64,000 nt of DNA, from contig DASCQM010000003.1 in the NCBI GenBank assembly GCA_036013055.1, positions 71,360 through 135,359 on the forward strand. Direction: 5' to 3'. A program made the translations under genes and the position numbers. The DNA comes from Dehalococcoidia bacterium (lineage in GTDB: Bacteria; Chloroflexota; Dehalococcoidia; UBA2979). Shown one piece after another: positions 3,077 through 63,104 of this stretch. The notes beneath the pieces were generated by a model. It did no database searches, was not told the origin of the DNA, and saw only the letters and a program-made list of their open reading frames with translations. Within the stretch, counting starts at the first letter, position 1, and each line of letters begins with the position of its first letter.

Positions 3077-3151
3077 GCCGGTGTAGCTCAGAGGTAGAGC
3101 AGCTGTTTCGTAAACAGCAGGTCGAGGGTTCGAATCCCCCCGCCGGCTCCA
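3077..3151 (+). tRNA. tRNA-Thr (anticodon CGT), CCA encoded
   Basis: Manual cloverleaf:
- acceptor GCCGGTG / CGCCGGC (one G-U pair)
- D arm GCTC-AGAGGTA-GAGC
- anticodon stem GCTGT / ACAGC, loop TTCGTAA (anticodon CGT at 3109-3111)
- variable loop AGGTC
- T arm GAGGG-TTCGAAT-CCCCC (one A-C mismatch)
- discriminator T, then CCA. Confidence 0.9.
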
Positions 3152-8054: not shown

Positions 8055-8120
8055 CCACACCCACCGCCCCACCACCAACCGGAGGCCCCAAGTGAGCGTG
8101 ACTGCGGGAGACGCAGCGCC

Positions 8121-8474
8121 ATGATGGCCGTCGTACGTAGCGCCAATCCGCGCCTCAGCCGCCGCTCAGACTTCACGACGGTGATGCGTCACGGTCGACG
8201 TTCTCGCAGCCGTCTGCTTCGCCTTGCCGCGCATGAGAACGGTCTCCACCGCAATCGTTATGGCTTCGCCATCAGCCGTCGCGTCGGCAACGCGGTCGTA
8301 CGCAACAAGGCCCGACGTCGGCTACGCGCGATCATTCGCCAGACTGCGCTCACGCCGGGCAACGACATCGTGATCACGGCCGATCCGCTTGTGGAAAATG
8401 CAAGCTATCAAGAGCTCACGGCTGCATTCGAGACTATTGCTCGCAAGCTGTCGCTGATTGATGGCTCTCAATGA
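8121..8474 (+). CDS. rnpA: ribonuclease P protein component
   Basis: Follows rpmH. Basic 117-aa protein with the RNR-type motif (NAVVRNKARRRLRAI). Confidence 0.9.
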   Translation: MMAVVRSANPRLSRRSDFTTVMRHGRRSRSRLLRLAAHENGLHRNRYGFAISRRVGNAVVRNKARRRLRAIIRQTALTPGNDIVITADPLVENASYQELTAAFETIARKLSLIDGSQ

Positions 8475-8520
8475 GCGTTGTTACTACTAACCACCTGTCA
8501 CTGGCTGTAGAAGACGTTCG

Positions 8521-8847
8521 ATGCTGAGACGCGCTGCCCTCGCAGCAATCCGCCTCTACCAGCGATCGGTCTCGCCATCGCTCGGCACGAACTGCCGCTA
8601 CGAGCCGACGTGCTCCGCCTACACATACGAGGCCGTTGAGCGCCACGGTGCGGTCCGCGGCACCTGGATGGGCATTCGCCGCATCGCACGCTGCCGGCCC
8701 GGCCGAGCCGGTGGTTACGACCCGGTCGTCGTCGAATCTGAGTTAGGTTCACCAGCAACAGCGGAATCAGACGCCGTCGATGCTGCGATGCAGCACTCCC
8801 ACGCACACGCTCGTCCCCCCGCGGGCGCGACAGAAAGGCGAGCATAA
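8521..8847 (+). CDS. yidD: membrane protein insertion efficiency factor YidD (extended C-terminus)
   Basis: AAIRLYQRSVSP.LG..CRYEPTCSAYTYEAVERHG...G.W.G.RRI.RC.P is the YidD signature. Confidence 0.85.
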   Translation: MLRRAALAAIRLYQRSVSPSLGTNCRYEPTCSAYTYEAVERHGAVRGTWMGIRRIARCRPGRAGGYDPVVVESELGSPATAESDAVDAAMQHSHAHARPPAGATERRA

Positions 8848-8867
8848 GACAATCGTGAAATCCCTTA

Positions 8868-8883
8868 TGTTTCACGTGTGACA
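8868..8883. promoter_or_regulatory. parS-like site TGTTTCACGTGTGACA (14/16 to the TGTTTCACGTGAAACA consensus)
   Basis: Read directly in the AT-rich yidD-propeller spacer, about 4.9 kb upstream of parB. It overlaps a second inverted repeat, CGTGAAA-N9-TTTCACG (8854..8876). Confidence 0.6.
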
Positions 8884-8892
8884 CCCCTAACC

Positions 8893-10068
8893 ATGCGACG
8901 ATCCACCCTCGATTCCCTGCCAGCGCCACGTCTGACGCGATCGCGACGCTGGCTCCTTCCCGCCTTGCTCGTGCTCGCCCTTTTCGCTACCGGGTGCGCG
9001 CGGATCGCGGAGGCCAGTGGCTGGTCCAGTCCGGCCTACGACGGCGACATCCTCGTCACGCAGTCCGACGAGGGCGTCATTTCAGCCTTTCAGGTTGCCG
9101 ATCCCACGATCCCGCTCAACCCCGCCGCTCCGCTCTGGACGTATCCAACCCACAACAGCGCCGATGACGACATCGGTTTCGACACGATCTACGCAACGCC
9201 GATCATCGAGGGCAACACGGTCTACGTCGCCGGCTACAGCGGCACGGTCGTCGCTCTCGCCCTCAGCGGAGACACTGCCGGCCGGCCACTGCCCGCGTGG
9301 GGCGGCCCGATCGAGCTCGACGAGCGCATCGTCGCTACCCCGGCGTTGCACGACGGCGTGCTGTACGTGGCAACCGAGGAAGGCAACCTGCACTCGCTGG
9401 CTACAGCCTCAGGCGCAGCGGTCACGGCCCCGATCGTCGTCGGCGGCCGCCTCTGGACCCAGCCACACATCGATGGTGGTCGCATCTACCTCGGCAGCAT
9501 CGACGATTCATTGATCGCGCTCGATCTCACAGGCGGTGCCACCGCCTGGAGGCGGGACATCGGCAGCATCGCCGGCGACGCGTTCGCCGACAGCAGCCTG
9601 CTGTACATGCCATCGCTCGATGGCCGCATTCATGCGCTGGACCTCGCTGCTGGCGGGGCTGAGCGCTGGCCGGAAGGCGCTGGTGGCGGTTCTGGGTGGT
9701 TCTGGGGCCGTCCACTGCTGCAAGGTAGTGTTCTCTATGCCATTGCTGTCGATGGCACTGCGTACGCCTTCAATGCAACGACAGGCGCAGAACAGTGGCG
9801 TTCGCAACCGCCGGACGGCGACGAGGTTCGCGCAGCGCCGATCGTCGTCGCCGGCGTGCTGCTCGTCGCCACTCGCGATGGTGATATCCGCGGCATCAAC
9901 GCGAGCAACGGAGCCGAACTCTGGGTCCACTCCGTGGACGGGGAGCGCTTCTACGCCGACCCGATCCAGATCGACTCCAACATCATCATCTACGCCGACA
10001 ACGACGGTGGTCTCTGGCAGGTGAATCCCGCCACCGGCACCGTCCGTGTCTACCTCGAACGCGACTAG
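8893..10068 (+). CDS. PQQ-like (BamB-type) beta-propeller repeat lipoprotein
   Basis: Lipobox LALFATGC after a basic leader. Repeated motifs of the type G.(V/L)Y(V/A)....G.(L/V).A(L/F)D..(T/G)G...W are typical of PQQ-like propellers. Confidence 0.8.
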   Translation: MRRSTLDSLPAPRLTRSRRWLLPALLVLALFATGCARIAEASGWSSPAYDGDILVTQSDEGVISAFQVADPTIPLNPAAPLWTYPTHNSADDDIGFDTIYATPIIEGNTVYVAGYSGTVVALALSGDTAGRPLPAWGGPIELDERIVATPALHDGVLYVATEEGNLHSLATASGAAVTAPIVVGGRLWTQPHIDGGRIYLGSIDDSLIALDLTGGATAWRRDIGSIAGDAFADSSLLYMPSLDGRIHALDLAAGGAERWPEGAGGGSGWFWGRPLLQGSVLYAIAVDGTAYAFNATTGAEQWRSQPPDGDEVRAAPIVVAGVLLVATRDGDIRGINASNGAELWVHSVDGERFYADPIQIDSNIIIYADNDGGLWQVNPATGTVRVYLERD

Positions 10069-10089
10069 CAGAGGCTTCCAGGAGCTCCC

Positions 10090-11106
10090 ATGCCTATCGG
10101 CTTCATCTGGCAGACGTTCCTCGAGACGCCCCTGATCAACTTCATGATCCTGCTCACCGTCGGCGCGTTCAGCTCCTTCGGGTTCGCCATCCTCGCCTTC
10201 ACGCTCATCACACGTGTTATTACTTTCCCACTGACGATGCGCACGATGCGGTCGACTCGCGCAATGCAGGAACTGCAGCCTCAGATTCAGGAACTGCAGA
10301 AGAAGTACTCCGACCCTCGCCGCCGCTCCGAGGAGACGATGAAGCTCTACAAGGAATCCGGCGTAAACCCTCTCGGCTGTCTCGGCTCTCAGATCATCCA
10401 GTTCCCGCTCTTCATCGCGATGTACCAGGTGATCCGCACGACGCTCGCCAACTCACCCGAGGGCGTCCTCTACCTGGAAAGCAGGCTCTACGACATCGAC
10501 TCCATGTTCGGCGCCCGCTTCATGCATGACGCGCTGCCGCTGAACACGGACTTCTTCTTCATGGACCTCACCGCCTCGGGTACGAACGTCACCAGCATCA
10601 CGCTGATGCTGCTCGTCTTCGCGTCGATGTGGTTGCAGCAGCGGATCTCCGTCTCGCGCACCTCAGCGACCGGCAATCAGAGCGACCAACAGCAACAGAT
10701 GAGCCAGATGATGCAGTGGATGATGCCGATCATGTTCGCGGCATTTGTGATCGCAGTTCCGGCGGGACTGGGCCTCTACTGGACAGCCACGACCGTGATT
10801 GGGATTATCCTGCACTGGACGTTCCTAGGCCCGGGTGACTTCACCTGGGGCTCACTGATTCCAGAACAGCTTCAATCCCGCATCACACCTGCCGCAGGAA
10901 CAGCACTGACCACGACCGAATCCGACACCCAGCCCGGCGATTCTTCCGACGATGACGACGAGGACGCCAGTACCGAGATAGGGACCAACGATGGCGAACG
11001 AAGTAGAAACCAGCGGACCAGACGTCGACGCAGCGGTCGCCAGGGCTCTCAGTCAACTCGGCCTCAATCGCGATCAAGTCGACGTCGACGTCGTCCGCGA
11101 AGGTAG
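10090..11106 (+). CDS. yidC: membrane protein insertase YidC (short monoderm type) with Arg-rich C-terminal tail
   Basis: FAILAFTLITRVITFPLT..........MQELQP.IQELQKKY..D......E.MKLYKE.GVNPLGC is YidC/Oxa1 core. Tail: ...RNQRTRRRRSGRQGSQSTRPQSRSSRRRRRPRR. Confidence 0.9.
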   Translation: MPIGFIWQTFLETPLINFMILLTVGAFSSFGFAILAFTLITRVITFPLTMRTMRSTRAMQELQPQIQELQKKYSDPRRRSEETMKLYKESGVNPLGCLGSQIIQFPLFIAMYQVIRTTLANSPEGVLYLESRLYDIDSMFGARFMHDALPLNTDFFFMDLTASGTNVTSITLMLLVFASMWLQQRISVSRTSATGNQSDQQQQMSQMMQWMMPIMFAAFVIAVPAGLGLYWTATTVIGIILHWTFLGPGDFTWGSLIPEQLQSRITPAAGTALTTTESDTQPGDSSDDDDEDASTEIGTNDGERSRNQRTRRRRSGRQGSQSTRPQSRSSRRRRRPRR

Positions 11107-12016
11107 GAAGGGCGGCTTCCTCGGCATCGGTGCCGAAGCCGCAATCGTCCGCGTCGCCGAGAAGGCTGGTGCCGCGTCGTCTGACGGTGACCGCGACGGC
11201 CAGAGTGACGGCGACGGCGAACGATCATCAGACGGCGATGGCGACGGTGAGCGATCGTCCGAGGGCGGCGGACGTCGTCGACGCGGCGGGCGCGGCCGTG
11301 GCGGTCGCGGACGGGGACGCGGCAATCGCGGTGGCTCCGGCGACGGCGGCTCGGGCGATAGTGACAGCGACGGCCGAAGCGACAGTCGAGGCGACGAGCC
11401 ACGTCGAGAGCAGCGCGAGCGGCGACCACGTCGCGAATCCGCGCCGTACACGGCAGCCGAAGAGCCGATGCTGGTGCCCGGCGCGCCCGACGAGCTTCCC
11501 TCGGCACCCCCGGCCGACGCCGAAGACGAGATGGACTTCGCGGGGCACACCCTGCGCGACTTGCTGAACTTCTTCGGCCTCGAGGAGACCGAGATCAGCG
11601 GCCGCGACCCCGAGACCGCCGGCGATGGCGTCGGGCTGATGACGCAGGTCTTCGACATCTACGGCGAGACAGACGACGCCTCCGACGAGCTTGGCCTCCT
11701 GATCGGCCGCCGCGGCGAGACGCTGCAGGCACTCCAGTACCTGCTGAACGTGATGGTCTCCAGCCGCTACGATGGCGACCACGTGTTTGCCGTCGACGTC
11801 GAAGGCTATCGTCGGCGTCGTGAGAACACCTTGCAGGACCTCGCCGAGCGGGTTGCCAGCGAGGTGATCGACACCGGTGACGTGATCACGCTTGAGCCGA
11901 TGCCCGCCGCGGAGCGCCGCATCATCCACCTCACGCTCGAGGCGATGGATGGTGTCACCACCGAGAGCGTCGGGTCCGGCAACAACCGGCAGGTCGAGGT
12001 GCTTCCCGGAGAGTAG
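10991..12016 (+). CDS. jag: RNA-binding protein Jag/KhpB (Jag-N, KH, R3H) with RGG/acidic low-complexity insert
   Basis: N-terminal Jag_N pattern (DVDAAVARALSQLGLNRDQVDVDVVREGRKGGFLGIG). C-terminal KH/R3H region (LLIGRRGETLQALQYLLN...EPMPAAERRIIHLTL). Conserved position after yidC. Confidence 0.85.
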   Translation: MANEVETSGPDVDAAVARALSQLGLNRDQVDVDVVREGRKGGFLGIGAEAAIVRVAEKAGAASSDGDRDGQSDGDGERSSDGDGDGERSSEGGGRRRRGGRGRGGRGRGRGNRGGSGDGGSGDSDSDGRSDSRGDEPRREQRERRPRRESAPYTAAEEPMLVPGAPDELPSAPPADAEDEMDFAGHTLRDLLNFFGLEETEISGRDPETAGDGVGLMTQVFDIYGETDDASDELGLLIGRRGETLQALQYLLNVMVSSRYDGDHVFAVDVEGYRRRRENTLQDLAERVASEVIDTGDVITLEPMPAAERRIIHLTLEAMDGVTTESVGSGNNRQVEVLPGE

Positions 12017-12087
12017 TCACGAGACACCCCGGGGCCCGCGATCGGGTCACTCACTCCCCGTAGATTCCGTGAGGTCGGGAGAGACGC

Positions 12088-12942
12088 ATGCCTCCCTCTC
12101 CGCCGAAGATGCTCGCGATCGGTCCGTTCGCCACTGACGTGATCGGTGCCGAACGACGTCCAGGAGGCGCGGTCTCATACACGGCTCGCGCAGCACACTC
12201 GTTCGGAACACGGCTCGCGATCCTCACGATCGGCGACCCGGACTCGCTTCCGCCCGCCTTCGATGGCCACGACGTCACCGTCGTGCCGGACGCCACACTG
12301 ACGTTCAGCCACGCCACCCGAGGCAACGACCGCGAGCTGACCGTGGCGAGCCAACCCTCGCGAGCGCTGCTGGCGTCCGACCTTCCGCAGGGATGGGCGC
12401 AGGCGGAGACCGTGATGTTGATGCCGCTCGTGCCACAGGACGACTGCGCATCCTTCGCGGGCATCCCAAGCGACGGCCAGCGAGCGCTGGTAGGGCAGGG
12501 GCTTCAGCGCGCGCTCACATCTTCCTCACGTATTGTCGAGCGTTCACGACCATCTACCGACCTCATTCGAGCTTTTTCCACCACTACCACGCTATTTCTT
12601 TCGGAACAGGAGACGTCTGGCTGGACGTATGAAGAGATGACGCTAGCGATCGGTCGTAACGCTCGCGTCGTGATCACGCGTGGCGCAGCCGGTGCCGACA
12701 TCTACGGCGCGGGCCACGACCCGATCCACATCGACGTCACGCTCGCCGAGCCGGTCGATACGAACGGCGCCGGCGACGTCTTCGCCACCGCCTTCATGCT
12801 CGCGCTCGCGCGTGGCGACGACGACGAGACCGCCGGCCGGCTGGCGAGCGCGTACGCCGCCGCCTGTGTCGAGGTCGTCGGTCCGGCGGAGCTGCCACCG
12901 CTCGCCGCGATCGAGGCGAGGATCGGTGCGACCAGCTCATGA
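12088..12942 (+). CDS. PfkB-family carbohydrate/nucleoside kinase
   Basis: C-terminal PfkB signature DTNGAGDVFATAF plus an N-terminal GG.....A motif. ATGA overlap with parA. Confidence 0.8.
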   Translation: MPPSPPKMLAIGPFATDVIGAERRPGGAVSYTARAAHSFGTRLAILTIGDPDSLPPAFDGHDVTVVPDATLTFSHATRGNDRELTVASQPSRALLASDLPQGWAQAETVMLMPLVPQDDCASFAGIPSDGQRALVGQGLQRALTSSSRIVERSRPSTDLIRAFSTTTTLFLSEQETSGWTYEEMTLAIGRNARVVITRGAAGADIYGAGHDPIHIDVTLAEPVDTNGAGDVFATAFMLALARGDDDETAGRLASAYAAACVEVVGPAELPPLAAIEARIGATSS

Positions 12943-13784
12943 CCTACATCTTCGCGATCACGAACCAGAAGGGCGGCGTCGGCAAGACCACCACGACGGT
13001 TTCGCTCGGTGCCGCGCTAGCCGAGCGCGGCTACCGGGTACTGATCGTCGATGCCGACCCGCAGGCCAACGCCACCTCCGCGGCGGGCACCGTCGACGCA
13101 GCGCCGCGCCCCGGCGACGGCACGCGCGACGGGATGGACGGGATGTACGAAGCGCTCGTCGATGAGCGTCCGCTCGCGGAGCTCGTCGTCGAGACCGTCA
13201 CCGCCGGGCTGCGGGTCGTGCCGAGCACGCCCGATCTTGCCGGTGCGGAGGTGGAGCTCACCTCCGTGCTCGCCCGCGAGTACCGGTTGAAGAAGCTGCT
13301 GGAGCCGGTGCGCGTCGACTATGACTTCATCCTGATCGACTGTCCGCCCTCGCTCGGCCTGCTCACCGTGAACGCGCTCGCCGCCGCAGACGAGGTGATC
13401 ATCCCGGTGCAGACGGAGTACCTCGCACTCGAAGGGCTCGGCCACCTCTCGCAGACGATCGAATTGATCCGGGGCAGTATCAACCCGAGCCTGCGTCTGC
13501 GCGGTATCGTGCTCACGATGTTTGACGCACGCACCAACCTGGCGAAGGAAGTCGAAGCTGAGGTGCGGCAGCACTTCGACAACACATTCCACGCGGTCAT
13601 CCCCCGCTCTGTGCGGCTCTCCGAGGCTCCGAGCCACGGCAAGCCGATCCAGAGTTACGACCCACTCTCTGCAGGGGCCCGTGCTTACGAGGCACTGGCT
13701 GACGAGCTCCTGGAGCAGCTAGAGATGTCGCCGAACGGCGGCAGCACTGGCGACACGACAGGAGGCAACCATGGCACGCAGTAG
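12939..13784 (+). CDS. parA: chromosome partitioning ATPase ParA/Soj
   Basis: Deviant Walker A: IFAITNQKGGVGKTTTTVSLGAALA. Also VLIVDADPQANAT. Confidence 0.9.
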   Translation: MTYIFAITNQKGGVGKTTTTVSLGAALAERGYRVLIVDADPQANATSAAGTVDAAPRPGDGTRDGMDGMYEALVDERPLAELVVETVTAGLRVVPSTPDLAGAEVELTSVLAREYRLKKLLEPVRVDYDFILIDCPPSLGLLTVNALAAADEVIIPVQTEYLALEGLGHLSQTIELIRGSINPSLRLRGIVLTMFDARTNLAKEVEAEVRQHFDNTFHAVIPRSVRLSEAPSHGKPIQSYDPLSAGARAYEALADELLEQLEMSPNGGSTGDTTGGNHGTQ

Positions 13785-14646
13785 CGGACTCGGACGGGGA
13801 CTCTCGGCGCTGATCCCGGACGGGCCACCGCGCGACGAGCGCATCCCGGTGAGCGAGGTCGAGGTCTCGCTGGTCACACCGAACCCGGAGCAGCCGCGTA
13901 CGTCGATCGACACGGTCGACATCGAGTCGCTCACGGCGTCGGTGAAGGAGCACGGGATCATCCAGCCGCTGCTCGTCTCGGAAGCGACGGGAGAGAGCGG
14001 CGAGACGGTCTACCAGCTGATTGCGGGGGAGCGTCGGCTGCGCGCCGCACGCGCCGCCGGGCTGACGCATGTCCCGGTCACGATCCGCCAGAGCACGCCG
14101 CAGGAGCTGCTGGAGCTGGCGCTGATCGAGAACGTCCAGCGGCTCGACCTCAACGCGCTCGAAGAGGCGCTCGCGTACCGCCGGCTGATCGAGGAGTTCG
14201 CACTCACTCAGCAAGCGGTCTCGGACCGCGTCGGTAAGTCGCGTACGGCGATCGCGAACACGCTACGGCTGCTCGACCTCAGTGAGGACGAGAAGGCGTC
14301 GCTGACGTCCGGCGAGGTGACCGAGGGGCACGCACGCGCCCTGCTCGGGGTCACCGACGGAACGCAGCGCTGGGAAGCGTGGCAGCAGGTCGTCGAACGA
14401 GGCTTGAACGTGCGTCAGACGGAGCGCATCGTACGCGAGTGGCGCAGCGAGGCCCCGGCCAAAGCTGCGGTCGTCGACCCCGTCGACGCGCAGATCGAAG
14501 CCCTGACGGAATCGCTGCGGCGCAGCCTCGGGACCAAGGTCTCCCTGCGTCGGAACAAGCGCGGCGCGGGGAGCATGACGATCCACTTCTATAGCGACGA
14601 AGAGCTGGACGGGCTACTCGACCGGCTGACGCCAGAAGGCGTCTGA
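13771..14646 (+). CDS. parB: chromosome partitioning protein ParB/Spo0J
   Basis: [23 protein letters not shown] (ParB box), and an HTH ([23 protein letters not shown]). Confidence 0.9.
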
Positions 14647-14685
14647 GCGACAGTCTGAACGACAGCGAATCCGAAGAGGACTCCC

Positions 14686-60614: not shown

Positions 60615-60741
60615 TCACGGGGAGTGTCGATCGCTCGACGCAACCGAGTATACGAGCAGATTCGCGCCTCGGTCTACAATGGCAACGATTCTGAGTGGAG
60701 TTGCCGCGCCAGTACCTGCTATAGACGGCTTCTGGACGGCC

Positions 60742-60921
60742 CTAGACGCGAGCCGGTCGCCCAACCTCGCACTCCGAGTAGCCGCAGACCGGGCAGAGGC
60801 TGCAGCCCTCGCCGAATACGAGCGGACCGGCGCAGTCAGGGCAGCGCGGACCGGGTGCCGCCATGCGACGCAATCGACGTGCGGCCGTGGGAGGGGCGTT
60901 GGTGGGGCTGAGAGTTGTCAT
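60742..60921 (-). CDS. 59-aa zinc-ribbon protein (below ORF-track size cutoff)
   Basis: ATG 60921 with AGGTGA 4 nt upstream. Translation: MTTLSPTNAPPTAARRLRRMAAPGPRCPDCAGPLVFGEGCSLCPVCGYSECEVGRPARV. It contains CPDC...C..CP.CGYS.C and GC-rich third positions. The antisense track ORF 60529..60936 uses rare codons (ata, cta, gta, agt). Confidence 0.6.
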   Translation of the reverse strand: MTTLSPTNAPPTAARRLRRMAAPGPRCPDCAGPLVFGEGCSLCPVCGYSECEVGRPARV

Positions 60922-60933
60922 CTGATCACCTGC

Positions 60934-60949
60934 TAGGACATACGTTCTA
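60934..60949. promoter_or_regulatory. LexA-type box 2: TAGAAC-GTAT-GTCCTA (one core mismatch)
   Basis: Read on the minus strand, between the candidate -10 and the SD of the zinc-ribbon ORF. Confidence 0.5.
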
Positions 60950-60965
60950 TTGGTACGTCCTGCGC

Positions 60966-60995
60966 AGGCTAGTGTAGAACGTGCGTTCTAGTCAA
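60966..60995 (-). promoter_or_regulatory. candidate promoter TTGACT-18 nt-TAGCCT for the zinc-ribbon ORF
   Basis: On the minus strand, -35 at 60995-60990 and -10 at 60971-60966. The spacer is almost entirely box 1. Confidence 0.4.
60975..60990. promoter_or_regulatory. LexA-type box 1: perfect palindrome TAGAAC-GCAC-GTTCTA (GAAC-N4-GTTC core)
   Basis: Read directly. I scanned every GAAC in the window by eye, and these two are the only GAAC-N4-GT(T/C)C sites in intergenic DNA. Confidence 0.6.
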
Positions 60996-61039: not shown

Positions 61040-61762
61040 CTAGGCAGTTGGCAGCGGCGCGGCGCGCGACGCTTCGGCGTTCTCCGCCGCCTGCTCGACG
61101 TTGCGCGCACCCGCGACGACCGCTGCGAGACGAGGCTCCGTGAGCGCCCAGGCGATCGCCGCCTGCGCCCGCGTGCGCGGCTCACCCTCGCAGAATGCGT
61201 CGAGCGCCACGCCCGCATCGCCGCCGATCAGCGCGCCTCCCGCGAGCGGCGAACAGCCGAGGACGGCAATTCCCGCCTCGGTGGCCGCATCGATCACGGC
61301 ACCCGGATCGTCGCCACCAAACGCGTAGGGCAGTTGCACGACGTCGATGCCGCCGCGCTCGACCGCCTCCAGCGCAGCCGCAGCGTCGGGGGCGGCCACG
61401 CCGATCACGTCGCAGAGACCGCTCGACCGCAGCGCCAGCAATGCATCGGCGGCAGCCGGCTGGAGCAGGTAGCCGTCGATGCGACCGACGCCGGGCTGCG
61501 CGGCGGCCGCTTCCAGCTCGGCAATGTCACCGTCGCCGGTCGCAACCAGCATCACGTGCAGCCGGCGCTGCGCAACGGCCTCACCGATCGCGGCCGCCAT
61601 CGCCGCGTCGGACGCGTCGAACTCGACGAGGCTCACGTCCGCGTCGAGCGCCGCTGTCACGGCAGCAACCGTGCCGTCATGGTCGGACGCATCGAGGGAT
61701 GCGGTCCCGAAGCCCACCTCGGCGACCATCAACTCCGTGCGTCCCAGCCTGCGGTAGTGCAA
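61040..61762 (-). CDS. aldo/keto reductase family protein (short)
   Basis: Y..LGRT.L.V.E.GFGT is the AKR N-terminus. A C-terminal conserved stretch (AQAAIAW.L) is present. At 240 aa it is shorter than typical AKRs. Confidence 0.75.
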   Translation of the reverse strand: MHYRRLGRTELMVAEVGFGTASLDASDHDGTVAAVTAALDADVSLVEFDASDAAMAAAIGEAVAQRRLHVMLVATGDGDIAELEAAAAQPGVGRIDGYLLQPAAADALLALRSSGLCDVIGVAAPDAAAALEAVERGGIDVVQLPYAFGGDDPGAVIDAATEAGIAVLGCSPLAGGALIGGDAGVALDAFCEGEPRTRAQAAIAWALTEPRLAAVVAGARNVEQAAENAEASRAAPLPTA

Positions 61763-61801: not shown

Positions 61802-61981
61802 ATGTCCGCGTTGCTACGTCTCTCCCTGATCGCCGGGGCACTGCTGATCGGGTACATGCTGCTGTACTCGCCCGGCCGGCTTCAGGCGCTCGGCCGCCGG
61901 CTGCGCATCGTCGGCTTCGCGTACGTCGCGGCGATCCTGATCGGTGCCGCGCTGCGTCTGCTCGGCTTTTACGGCACCTAG
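61802..61981 (+). CDS. 59-aa two-helix membrane protein (below ORF-track cutoff)
   Basis: ATG 61802 (AGGA 7 nt upstream). Translation: MSALLRLSLIAGALLIGYMLLYSPGRLQALGRRLRIVGFAYVAAILIGAALRLLGFYGT. Strong GC3 bias. Ends 13 nt before the glycerate kinase ATG. Confidence 0.5.
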   Translation: MSALLRLSLIAGALLIGYMLLYSPGRLQALGRRLRIVGFAYVAAILIGAALRLLGFYGT

Positions 61982-61994
61982 GCGCGGTCGATCC

Positions 61995-63104
61995 ATGCGC
62001 ATCCTCGTCTGCCCGCAAGAATTCAAGGGCTCGCTGACCGCGCCAGAGGCCGCCCGCGCCATCAGCGATGGCATCCGACGTGAGATGCCTGACGCCGAGA
62101 TCATCGAGGCACCGACGGCCGACGGCGGCCCCGGCACGGTCGCGCTCGTGCATGCCACGAGCGGAGGCGAACTGATCGACGGCCGCTGGCGGGGGCCGCT
62201 CGGCGAAGCCGTCGACGCCGCCTACGCGCTGCTGCCGGACGGCAGCGCCGTAATCGAGGCTGCGACCGTCGCGGGCCTCGTGCTCGTGCCCGAGGCCGAC
62301 CGCGATCCCGGCGTCGCGTCGACGTACGGCGTCGGCGAACAGATCGGCGACGCGCTGCGGCAGGGGGCACGTCACATCACCGTCGGTGTCGGGGGCACCG
62401 GGACGAACGACGGTGGGGCGGGGGCCGCGCAGGCGCTCGGCCTGCGGCTACTCGACGGCGACGGCAGCGAACTCGCGCCCGGCGGGCTGGCGCTCGGTCT
62501 ACTCGCGCGCATCGACGCCACCGACGCGAACCCCCTGCTCGCGGACGCTGAGCTACGCGTCGCCGTCGATGTCTCGAACCGGCTGCTCGGTCCGGAAGGC
62601 GCGACCGCGATCTACGGGCCACAGAAGGGCGTGACGCCGGAGCTGGTGCCACGACTGGAGGCCGCGCTGGCCCGCTGGGCGGATCGCTGTGCAGCCGATC
62701 TCGATGTCGATATCGCGACGATCGATGGCAGCGGCGCGGGCGGCGGGCTGCCGGCCGGGCTGATCGCGGCGGCGGGCGGCACGATCGCGAGCGGCGCGAC
62801 GATCGTCGGTCAGGCGATCGGGCTGCCGCAGCAGATCGCGGCAGCCGACCTCGTGGTCACCGGCGAGGGCCGGCTCGACGCGCAGACCGCCTACGGCAAG
62901 GCTGTCGCCTACGTCGCGGGATTGGCAGACGCATCGGACCGCCCATGCCTCGCCGTCGGCGGCACAATCGATGCCATCCCTCCACAGATCAGCGACGCCG
63001 AAGCGGCGGCACCCGACGGCATGCCTGTCGATCAGGCGATGGCACGAGCGGCGGAACTCGTCGCCGGCGCGGCGCGGCGGTTGATACAGCGACACGCGGT
63101 CTAA
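61995..63104 (+). CDS. glxK: glycerate kinase
   Basis: MRILVCPQEFKGSLTA.EAA.AI..G......D........ADGG.GT. Also GTGTNDGGAG and VTGEG.LD.QT..GK motifs. ATG 61995 within the track ORF. Confidence 0.88.
   Translation: MRILVCPQEFKGSLTAPEAARAISDGIRREMPDAEIIEAPTADGGPGTVALVHATSGGELIDGRWRGPLGEAVDAAYALLPDGSAVIEAATVAGLVLVPEADRDPGVASTYGVGEQIGDALRQGARHITVGVGGTGTNDGGAGAAQALGLRLLDGDGSELAPGGLALGLLARIDATDANPLLADAELRVAVDVSNRLLGPEGATAIYGPQKGVTPELVPRLEAALARWADRCAADLDVDIATIDGSGAGGGLPAGLIAAAGGTIASGATIVGQAIGLPQQIAAADLVVTGEGRLDAQTAYGKAVAYVAGLADASDRPCLAVGGTIDAIPPQISDAEAAAPDGMPVDQAMARAAELVAGAARRLIQRHAV

Follow-up and report, generated by a model that had tools for sequence, protein, structure and literature searches.

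Introduction

Most class II (B12-dependent) ribonucleotide reductases (RNR) have a six-cysteine zinc finger at their end. In NrdJ of S. nassauensis, an enzyme of this class, six cysteines of the C-terminal tail (C920, C923, C933, C936, C939 and C945) are all required for turnover with tris(2-carboxyethyl)phosphine (TCEP); four of them have been proposed as zinc ligands and two as a redox pair, and electron transfer between subunits is considered possible (PMC5704485). In the NrdJa+b enzymes the whole cysteine-rich domain of 150-220 aa is a separate gene, and in the literature no physiological reductant has been assigned to the zinc-finger tail of NrdJ (PMC5704485). Class II RNRs with neither C-terminal cysteines nor a known shuttle make up a sizeable share (PMC9669993). 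Among class II RNR tails without the zinc finger, 26% lack cysteines altogether, and the split NrdJa/b arrangement accounts for only ~40% of the cysteine-free class II tails (PMC9669993). On the regulatory side, LexA of Firmicutes and Actinobacteria recognises the palindrome GAAC-N4-GTTC (PMC3323433). Here we describe a 59-aa gene on a 64,000-nucleotide stretch of DNA from a Dehalococcoidia bacterium (GCA_036013055.1, contig DASCQM010000003.1, positions 71,360 to 135,359; hereafter the window), whose product is a free-standing relative of the NrdJ tail and whose promoter is overlapped by two LexA-type boxes.

The cysteines of the peptide are spaced Cx2Cx9Cx2Cx2Cx4C and those of the S. nassauensis tail Cx2Cx9Cx2Cx2Cx5C (PMC5704485); both share the GEGC and CG(Y/F)SxC signatures and the extreme C-terminal place. 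Unlike the NrdJ tail, the peptide belongs to a family of free-standing proteins of 51-96 aa, without catalytic barrel or TSCPD/IscU-like domain, which have an RRLRR motif of their own and are encoded apart from RNR genes behind a LexA-type double operator. A precedent for a separate polypeptide with the same zinc-finger end, acting in trans, is NrdJb of the Pseudomonas aeruginosa type (PMC5704485, PMC9669993). However, NrdJb is 150-220 aa long, contains a TSCPD/IscU-like domain and adjoins nrdJa, and the peptide has none of these features.

As regards control, the Cheo-box LexA regulons of Firmicutes, Actinomycetota and Chloroflexota have the same palindrome, the same purine/pyrimidine (R/Y) spacer edges and the same overlap with the core promoter as the peptide gene, although this gene falls outside the customary SOS set (lexA, recA, uvrA, Y-family polymerases, division inhibitors). 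The small proteins SulA, YneA, ChiZ, SidA/DidA and SosA are like the peptide in being short and restricted to a single lineage, and tight repression by LexA would be a further common trait, but the peptide has no membrane or LysM segment; by inspection it is basic and cysteine-rich, with no hydrophobic segment. Judged by these comparisons, the coding part appears to be a new, minimal and free-standing form of a module otherwise found almost only on RNR proteins, while the regulatory part reads as a textbook Cheo-box SOS promoter. In the literature searched, neither such a gene nor a LexA-controlled RNR-tail module turned up.

A short gene under purifying selection

The coding part of the locus comprises the following features.

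60742..60921, minus strand: 59-aa protein-coding gene, MTTLSPTNAPPTAARRLRRMAAPGPRCPDCAGPLVFGEGCSLCPVCGYSECEVGRPARV, recognised from the open reading frame (ORF) listing, homologues and codon differences; uncalled on the source contig
60926..60931, minus strand: Shine-Dalgarno sequence AGGTGA, 4 nt 5' of the ATG, seen in the sequence and matched by a GGAGG-like element at the same place in orthologues
60862..60879, minus strand: basic motif RRLRRM, residues 15-20, 5' of the zinc ribbon; not in NrdJ tails
60769..60843, minus strand: six-cysteine zinc-ribbon module, C27, C30, C40, C43, C46 and C51 (Cx2Cx9Cx2Cx2Cx4C), recognised by its homology to the very end of the class II RNR chain (NrdJ)

This DNA had previously been described by a model from the letters alone, and that preliminary description reported a minus-strand ORF of 59 aa with its translation and the Shine-Dalgarno sequence AGGTGA, all of which are present. 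It also called the gene unannotated; indeed, nothing is called at 60742-60921 on the source metagenome contigs and an exact look-up of the 59-aa product found no record. The lower GC that it noted for the 425-bp spacer is likewise borne out, with 0.635 for the spacer and 0.576 for its promoter part against 0.678 for the window. Its GC-rich third codon positions are there, yet the bias is weaker than was implied, since GC at the third position is 0.75 compared with 0.67 and 0.70 at the first and second, which is modest. An Rfam scan of the window gave a tRNA as its sole match, with no riboswitch or leader in the spacer.

A protein search found 101 free-standing homologues, all of 51-96 aa. Their names are uninformative, the few labelled ones being a hypothetical protein or an uncharacterized zinc-finger protein, and those with a taxon label come from metagenome-assembled genomes (MAGs) of Dehalococcoidia or Chloroflexota. 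Furthermore, a scan of one genome per species of the GTDB revealed relatives in 102 species, all of them Chloroflexota, from which 80 loci were retained. No relative of the peptide was found in the viral contigs searched.

In the alignment C30, C40, C46, C51, G32-P33-L34, G37-E38-G39, G47 and S49 are invariant, C27 and C43 are nearly so, and the GEGC and CG(Y/F)S motifs are invariant or nearly invariant across the family; the N-terminus of the peptide is variable. Within the basic motif, L17 and R18 are nearly invariant in alignment A1, with a consensus RRLRR placed 6-12 residues before the first cysteine. Over the 27-codon core of 80 distinct orthologues, codon changes relative to the window number 583 synonymous and 296 non-synonymous. 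Synonymous changes outnumber non-synonymous ones 2:1, as expected of a sequence that is translated and constrained; the 59-codon ORF is a real gene under purifying selection.

A decaying 3' remnant of nrdJ, or a chance ORF without function, would have the lack of a gene call on the source contig, the length of just 59 codons and the limitation of the likeness to the last 30 residues of NrdJ in its favour. The ORF is nevertheless intact, with its own Shine-Dalgarno sequence and start codon, in ~100 species, its N-terminal side bears a conserved motif not shared with NrdJ, and a dedicated and strongly conserved promoter precedes it; the spread over 102 species, the promoter conservation and the 2:1 codon differences effectively refute this explanation, to which we give next to no credit. 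The case also holds a lesson for annotation, as a gene just under the usual ORF-length cut-offs went uncalled even though few regulatory footprints are clearer.

One subfamily of nine loci (L056, L069, L071, L077, L079, L080, L084, L088 and L091) has TQLRL(K/R/Q)(L/M)F in place of RRLRRM, a sequence that resembles the sliding-clamp-binding motifs QLxLxL/QLxLF. In this subfamily the two promoter boxes are only 23-25 nt apart, and 3' of the peptide gene stand genes for a radical-SAM methylthiotransferase (UPF0004 + Radical_SAM), a membrane protein and ScpB.

Relationship to the C-terminal tail of NrdJ

Pfam gave a weak zinc-ribbon match alone for the peptide. The NCBIfam model NF006417 for vitamin-B12-dependent RNR matched residues 17-51 at model positions 724-758/759 with E = 3.8e-8, that is at its last 35 positions. 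The likeness to a class II RNR tail, which the preliminary description had pointed out, is therefore confirmed by this match and by the profile comparison given below.

The family profile was compared with 1.84 billion representative proteins and gave 761 matches at E <= 0.001, the top ones being small free-standing proteins. Of 18 longer matches examined with Pfam, 13 are aligned at their extreme C-terminus and are either NrdJ, whole or fragmentary, or proteins that combine TSCPD with the six cysteines (NrdJb-like); the other five comprise a glutaredoxin fusion and four proteins lacking any significant Pfam domain. The NrdJ matches include P0211 (723 aa, with barrel and TSCPD) and P0196 (1679 aa, with inteins), and an example of a tail among the NrdJ-type matches is RCPDCGEPTLHGEGCEKCTICGWSRCS. 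Moreover, hhalign of the family against 12 NrdJ-type tails gave a probability of 99.5% and E = 6e-23 over 30 columns, extending to the last residue. The spacing Cx2Cx9Cx2Cx2Cx4C is common to 13 retrieved NrdJ, NrdJb-like and glutaredoxin-fusion tails, and the family proteins end 0-8 residues past the last cysteine. On these sequence comparisons, we consider the core of the peptide to be homologous to the C-terminal redox/zinc tail of NrdJ.

The glutaredoxin fusion, P0139 (147 aa), carries this six-cysteine finger together with a glutaredoxin domain, a hint that the NrdJ tail may be reduced in the cell by a glutaredoxin-like protein.

AlphaFold2 (AF2) with 102 sequences predicted a three-stranded zinc ribbon, with a predicted local distance difference test score (pLDDT) of 77-90 in residues 21-50; with 26 sequences the pLDDT was 54 and the model uninformative. 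A Foldseek search against the PDB returned non-significant generic zinc ribbons only (TFS4, Rpb9, PriA), and a sequence search of the PDB with the peptide gave no significant match.

The promoter and its two operator boxes

Upstream of the gene, the promoter is made up of the following elements.

60990..60995, minus strand: -35 element TTGACT, sharing its final T with the start of box 1; nearly all orthologous promoters likewise have TTGAC directly against box 1
60975..60990, minus strand: box 1, TAGAACGCACGTTCTA, a perfect 16-bp palindrome filling the 18-nt promoter spacer and abutting the -35 element in nearly all orthologues
60966..60971, minus strand: -10 element TAGCCT; TAnnnT stands directly 3' of box 1 in orthologues
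60934..60949, minus strand: box 2, TAGAACGTATGTCCTA, with one core mismatch, between the -10 element and the Shine-Dalgarno sequence; a second box exists in 72/81 orthologous promoters

The promoter with its two boxes, the first a perfect 16-bp palindrome, is as the preliminary description gave it. Box 1 is the only exact GAAC-N4-GTTC in the 64-kb window. Sites with up to one mismatch number 29, against 20.9 +/- 4.3 expected, and since they show no overall enrichment the window alone says little. The statement that no other such site lies in intergenic DNA of the 64 kb also stands: the sole other match to the position weight matrix, at 12191-12206, is within a PfkB-family coding region, and no further credible LexA-type site was found in the window.

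The orthologous promoters are far more telling. With one mismatch allowed, GAAC-N4-GTTC occurs in 81/81 distinct upstream regions, from ~80 species, and occurs twice in 72/81, so that the conservation of peptide and boxes among relatives, which had been proposed as a check on the candidate, is found. The order is constant, namely TTGAC, box 1, a TAnnnT -10 element, box 2, a GGAGG-type Shine-Dalgarno sequence and ATG, with box 2 at or just 3' of the predicted start site. The box-to-box distance is 22-41 nt in most promoters, and this variable spacing fits independent dimers. In a set of 93 sequences, made up of 92 related loci and the window, we counted 92 exact boxes within upstream windows totalling 24 kb, compared with 8 in all the other 1.51 Mb, or 3.8 per kb against 0.005 per kb, a ~720-fold difference; all 8 boxes outside the upstream windows fall within long ORFs. 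Nothing else in the region is as conserved as the promoter with its two boxes.

The boxes remain with the peptide gene where an aldo/keto reductase gene is inserted upstream (window, L013, L025, L074), and also where the downstream gene is other than transketolase. As they are kept with the peptide despite these changes of neighbour, they can be assigned to this gene, and the glycerate kinase and transketolase (tkt) genes on either side have no claim to them.

LexA as the probable binder of the boxes

The symmetrised consensus of the boxes is wAGAACRnnYGTTCTw. Its A/T flanks and R/Y spacer edges, which are positions not used in site selection, match the Cheo box CGAACRNRYGTTYC, and the spacer-edge position in the peptide loci is 47% A and 48% G. 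The LexA protein of Dehalococcoides ethenogenes reportedly binds GAAC-N4-GTTC as well (Fernandez de Henestrosa et al. 2002).

Searches by tblastn with E. coli LexA and RecA gave no match in the window or in any of the peptide loci. A synthetic Gram-positive-type LexA consensus used as query gave LexA matches whose names all pointed to other phyla (Firmicutes/Bacillota, Coriobacteriia, Armatimonadetes and a few others). In metagenomes, a scan for tandem AGAAC-N4-GTTCT boxes yielded 120 loci, 17 with an adjoining LexA homologue, 2 with the peptide and 1 also with recA. The boxes lie directly 5' of the lexA-like gene in 12 of those 17 loci, and several of these 12, among them L112, L120 and L208, have the same order TTGACA-box1-(G)GTATAAT-box2. 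The LexA of the L120 type consists of the Pfam domains LexA_DNA_bind and Peptidase_S24, and its homologues are named 'LexA [Chloroflexi bacterium]' (85%) and '[Anaerolineae bacterium]' (83%). At two loci, one on a MAG contig named Chloroflexi (VGOG01000163.1) and one on a JGI contig, the region upstream of lexA reads CCCTTGACA-TAGAACGCATGTTCTG-GTATAAT-...-TAGAACATGCGTTCTA. In the lexA promoters of the Chloroflexi/Anaerolineae type TTGACA directly precedes TAGAACGCATGTTCTG, and TTGAC thus adjoins box 1 as it does in the peptide promoters. The preliminary description had suggested comparing the lexA promoter of the organism; at the level of the phylum, lexA on these contigs does have the same motif and layout. 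Tandem boxes also occur 5' of Y-family polymerase genes (L198, L121, L204; Pfam IMS; unassigned metagenome contigs) and 5' of an FtsK-like gene adjoining lexA.

Two kinds of observation weigh against LexA. The lexA promoters compared are those of another class of the phylum and not of peptide-bearing genomes, and ~35 high-GC metagenome loci have GAGAACGnnCGTTCTC pairs with a TetR gene on one side and, on the other, a gene for an alpha/beta hydrolase or an NTF2-like protein. Because these loci carry AGAAC-N4-GTTCT pairs, the palindrome class is not unique to LexA. One could therefore think of a TetR-, GntR- or Rex-like dimer that answers to a metabolic signal and leaves the gene outside the SOS response, and the metabolic neighbours (glycerate kinase, transketolase) would suit such a regulator. 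The TetR-associated class is however different, with strict G..C spacer edges and an adjacent regulator gene, whereas the peptide boxes have the R/Y edges of LexA sites and no regulator gene was found conserved beside the peptide in the loci. In addition, the boxes follow the peptide when its neighbours change, the layout is identical to that of Chloroflexi lexA promoters, and the site reported for D. ethenogenes LexA is the same. We consequently regard a regulator other than LexA as very improbable. The GAGAACGnnCGTTCTC pairs are probably a TetR operator that resembles LexA boxes.

LexA control of the peptide gene is well supported by these comparisons, and LexA is very probably the binder of the boxes in the peptide-bearing lineage.

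NrdR was considered as the regulator and ruled out: NrdR boxes are AT-rich pairs of the ACACwAtATaTwGTGT type at fixed spacing, and the motif here is GAAC-N4-GTTC at a variable spacing of 22-41 nt.

Several further loci with such boxes came to light. At the TetR-class loci (L106, L109, L113, L116, L130, L154, L163, L164, L175, L191, L192, L202 and ~20 more), the GAGAACGnnCGTTCTC palindromes flank a -10-like element and the TetR gene is divergent. On Chloroflexi/Anaerolineae-type contigs (L213 3238-6594, L216 3398-5941, and also L095, L139, L153, L162 and L185), tandem LexA boxes precede a conserved SOS cassette of lexA, a ~150-aa gene without Pfam match and a gene for an FtsK/SpoIIIE-like ATPase, sometimes with two lexA paralogues in tandem. 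Two other loci (L111 329-781, L151 3080-3691) encode a cysteine-rich protein of 150-200 aa (...CSKI..GDN.VSPNLCRDCPA...) without Pfam match, with tandem LexA-type boxes directly 5'; it is a candidate for another undescribed SOS gene. Finally, in L167 (ERZ1370068 contig-8737) the tandem boxes are followed by a short LexA-like, possibly frameshifted frame and then directly by recA.

Possible function of the peptide

The preliminary description had proposed an undescribed small SOS effector, small SOS-induced proteins of other phyla being typically division inhibitors or repair/mutagenesis modulators without conservation between lineages. The peptide, however, is no orphan of the SulA/YneA type confined to one lineage: its homology to RNR points to redox/RNR chemistry rather than to inhibition of FtsZ or the divisome.

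From these data the following sequence of events can be proposed. A LexA dimer on box 1, within the -35/-10 spacer, would block RNA polymerase, and a second dimer would sit on box 2, at or just past the transcription start. Upon DNA damage, RecA-stimulated self-cleavage of LexA would free the promoter and the 59-aa protein would be made; induction of the gene by DNA damage is what the promoter sequence predicts. The peptide would hold one zinc through four of its cysteines, a binding predicted from the sequence, and the remaining pair would form a dithiol/disulfide shuttle. The free module would then act in trans on class II RNR, relaying reducing equivalents for its re-reduction, and thereby increase the supply of deoxynucleoside triphosphates (dNTP) for repair synthesis during the SOS response.

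Our confidence differs from step to step. That RNR is the target of the peptide has a nearly even chance, and its effect on the enzyme would presumably be positive. The explanation as a whole, an SOS-induced and trans-acting RNR-tail module raising the dNTP supply, is tentative, and we place it somewhat below an even chance. Its most specific form, in which the peptide is a DNA-damage-inducible electron shuttle in trans for class II RNR, a minimal NrdJb, is rather unlikely. The partner reductant of such a shuttle might be glutaredoxin-like, as P0139 hints. A possible rationale for a trans shuttle would lie in the class II RNR tails without cysteines, which are mostly unexplained by NrdJa/b (PMC9669993).

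A number of results argue against an RNR role. With an NrdJ query, tblastn found no RNR barrel in 92 loci (up to +/-10 kb). Pfam finds in the peptide no TSCPD/IscU-like domain, which accompanies the NrdJb finger, and the spacing between the last two cysteines is 4 residues, compared with 5 in the S. nassauensis NrdJ, the sole enzyme studied biochemically. Loderer et al. failed to reconstitute activity using a separately expressed cysteine-rich domain (CRD) (PMC5704485). Lastly, the conserved basic RRLRR, which is not in NrdJ tails, may indicate a different partner.

This last point leads to an alternative in which LexA/SOS control is kept and the protein has nothing to do with RNR today, being a checkpoint or repair factor built on an inherited NrdJ-tail scaffold with RRLRR added: for example an inhibitor of replication, gyrase or division, or an adaptor binding nucleic acids or proteins. 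Checkpoint proteins are what one typically finds among the small SOS effectors of other phyla. Besides the conserved basic motif, such a role would agree with the lack of any RNR gene near the peptide in the examined loci, with the zinc ribbons returned by the fold search, which bind nucleic acids or polymerases (TFS4, Rpb9, PriA; none significant), and with the likeness of QLRL(K/R/Q)(L/M)F in one subfamily to the sliding-clamp-binding QLxLxL. The clamp-like motif, however, is not conserved in the subfamily of the window, and the transmembrane or LysM segments of known division inhibitors are missing. Moreover, all six cysteines are conserved, including those that correspond to the two non-zinc ligands of the NrdJ model, together with GEGC and CG(Y/F)S, which suggests that redox-shuttle chemistry was retained, and outside the peptide family the module is found almost only on NrdJ/NrdJb proteins. 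An RNR-unrelated role is, on this evidence, possible though somewhat unlikely.

The absence of an anchoring TSCPD domain alongside the tail homology could also be read in another way, namely that the free tail is a decoy which vies with the tail of the enzyme itself for the active site or the reductant, lowers dNTP synthesis and so slows replication during repair. Isolated CRD gave no activity in vitro (PMC5704485), which would be in line with this, but the conservation of all six cysteines would be unnecessary for a decoy. Eukaryotes do have small protein inhibitors of RNR, yet these are removed, not induced, after damage, and as a rule RNR activity and dNTP pools go up in DNA-damage responses; in E. 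coli, for instance, damage induces nrdAB. We find the decoy quite improbable.

If the proposal of a trans-acting RNR-tail module is correct, a previously undescribed and very tightly controlled gene joins the SOS regulon of a large and mostly uncultured phylum, and there is a direct link between the DNA-damage response and the chemistry of dNTP synthesis. If its shuttle form holds, LexA would gate RNR turnover via active-site re-reduction, not via synthesis of the enzyme, and the re-reduction of class II reductases without C-terminal cysteines would be explained. As a soluble finger of 6 kDa, the peptide would also be a handy reagent for the questions of the NrdJ-tail reductant and of cysteine-free class II RNR.

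Neighbouring genes and other observations

A conserved partner gene of the peptide was sought in the loci and none was found. In most species the glycerate kinase gene is divergent and upstream, often preceded by a hydrophobic ORF of 59-63 aa. The downstream genes vary and include the split transketolase, a luciferase-like monooxygenase, a radical-SAM methylthiotransferase, an epimerase and an Imm5-like gene. The split transketolase genes are directly 3' of the peptide gene in 43/80 species, they follow an inserted luciferase-like monooxygenase gene in ~8 more, and in the remaining species they are not on the downstream side, their place being taken by a radical-SAM methylthiotransferase, an epimerase or other genes.

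The transketolase genes of the window have a promoter of their own.

60647..60676, minus strand: sigma-70-type transketolase promoter TAGACC-18-TATACT, outside the SOS unit; the scan gave 1 site against 0.1 expected

Other species keep its core, CGTATACTCG, in the corresponding intergenic region. Between the peptide gene and tktN no intrinsic terminator was detected, so that some read-through into tkt is possible. Nonetheless, the partial SOS control of transketolase that had been put forward in the preliminary description is weakly founded, and we find it doubtful, because the genes have their own conserved promoter, on account of which tkt is clearly independent of the SOS promoter, and in 35/80 species do not come directly after the peptide gene.

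As an extended -10 element, CGTATACTCG is almost invariant in dozens of Chloroflexota species (L001-L092), which goes beyond the needs of a -10 hexamer. On the other side of the peptide gene, a 240-aa aldo/keto-reductase-like gene (61040-61762, minus strand) lies between glycerate kinase and the peptide promoter, as it does in L013, L025 and L074; it ends 45 nt 5' of the -35 element, and read-through into the peptide gene is conceivable. Further upstream, the hydrophobic ORF of the window (61802-61981, plus strand, 59 aa) runs into the beginning of the glycerate kinase ORF (61944-63104). The source contig has a gene call for it; it has no Pfam match and is conserved in some relatives, and other relatives carry a gene of 59-63 aa at the same position.

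Elsewhere in the window, the tRNA is at 3077-3148, and rnpA, yidC, jag (KH/R3H), a PfkB kinase gene, parA and parB at ~8100-14650 on the plus strand form a typical replication-origin cluster.

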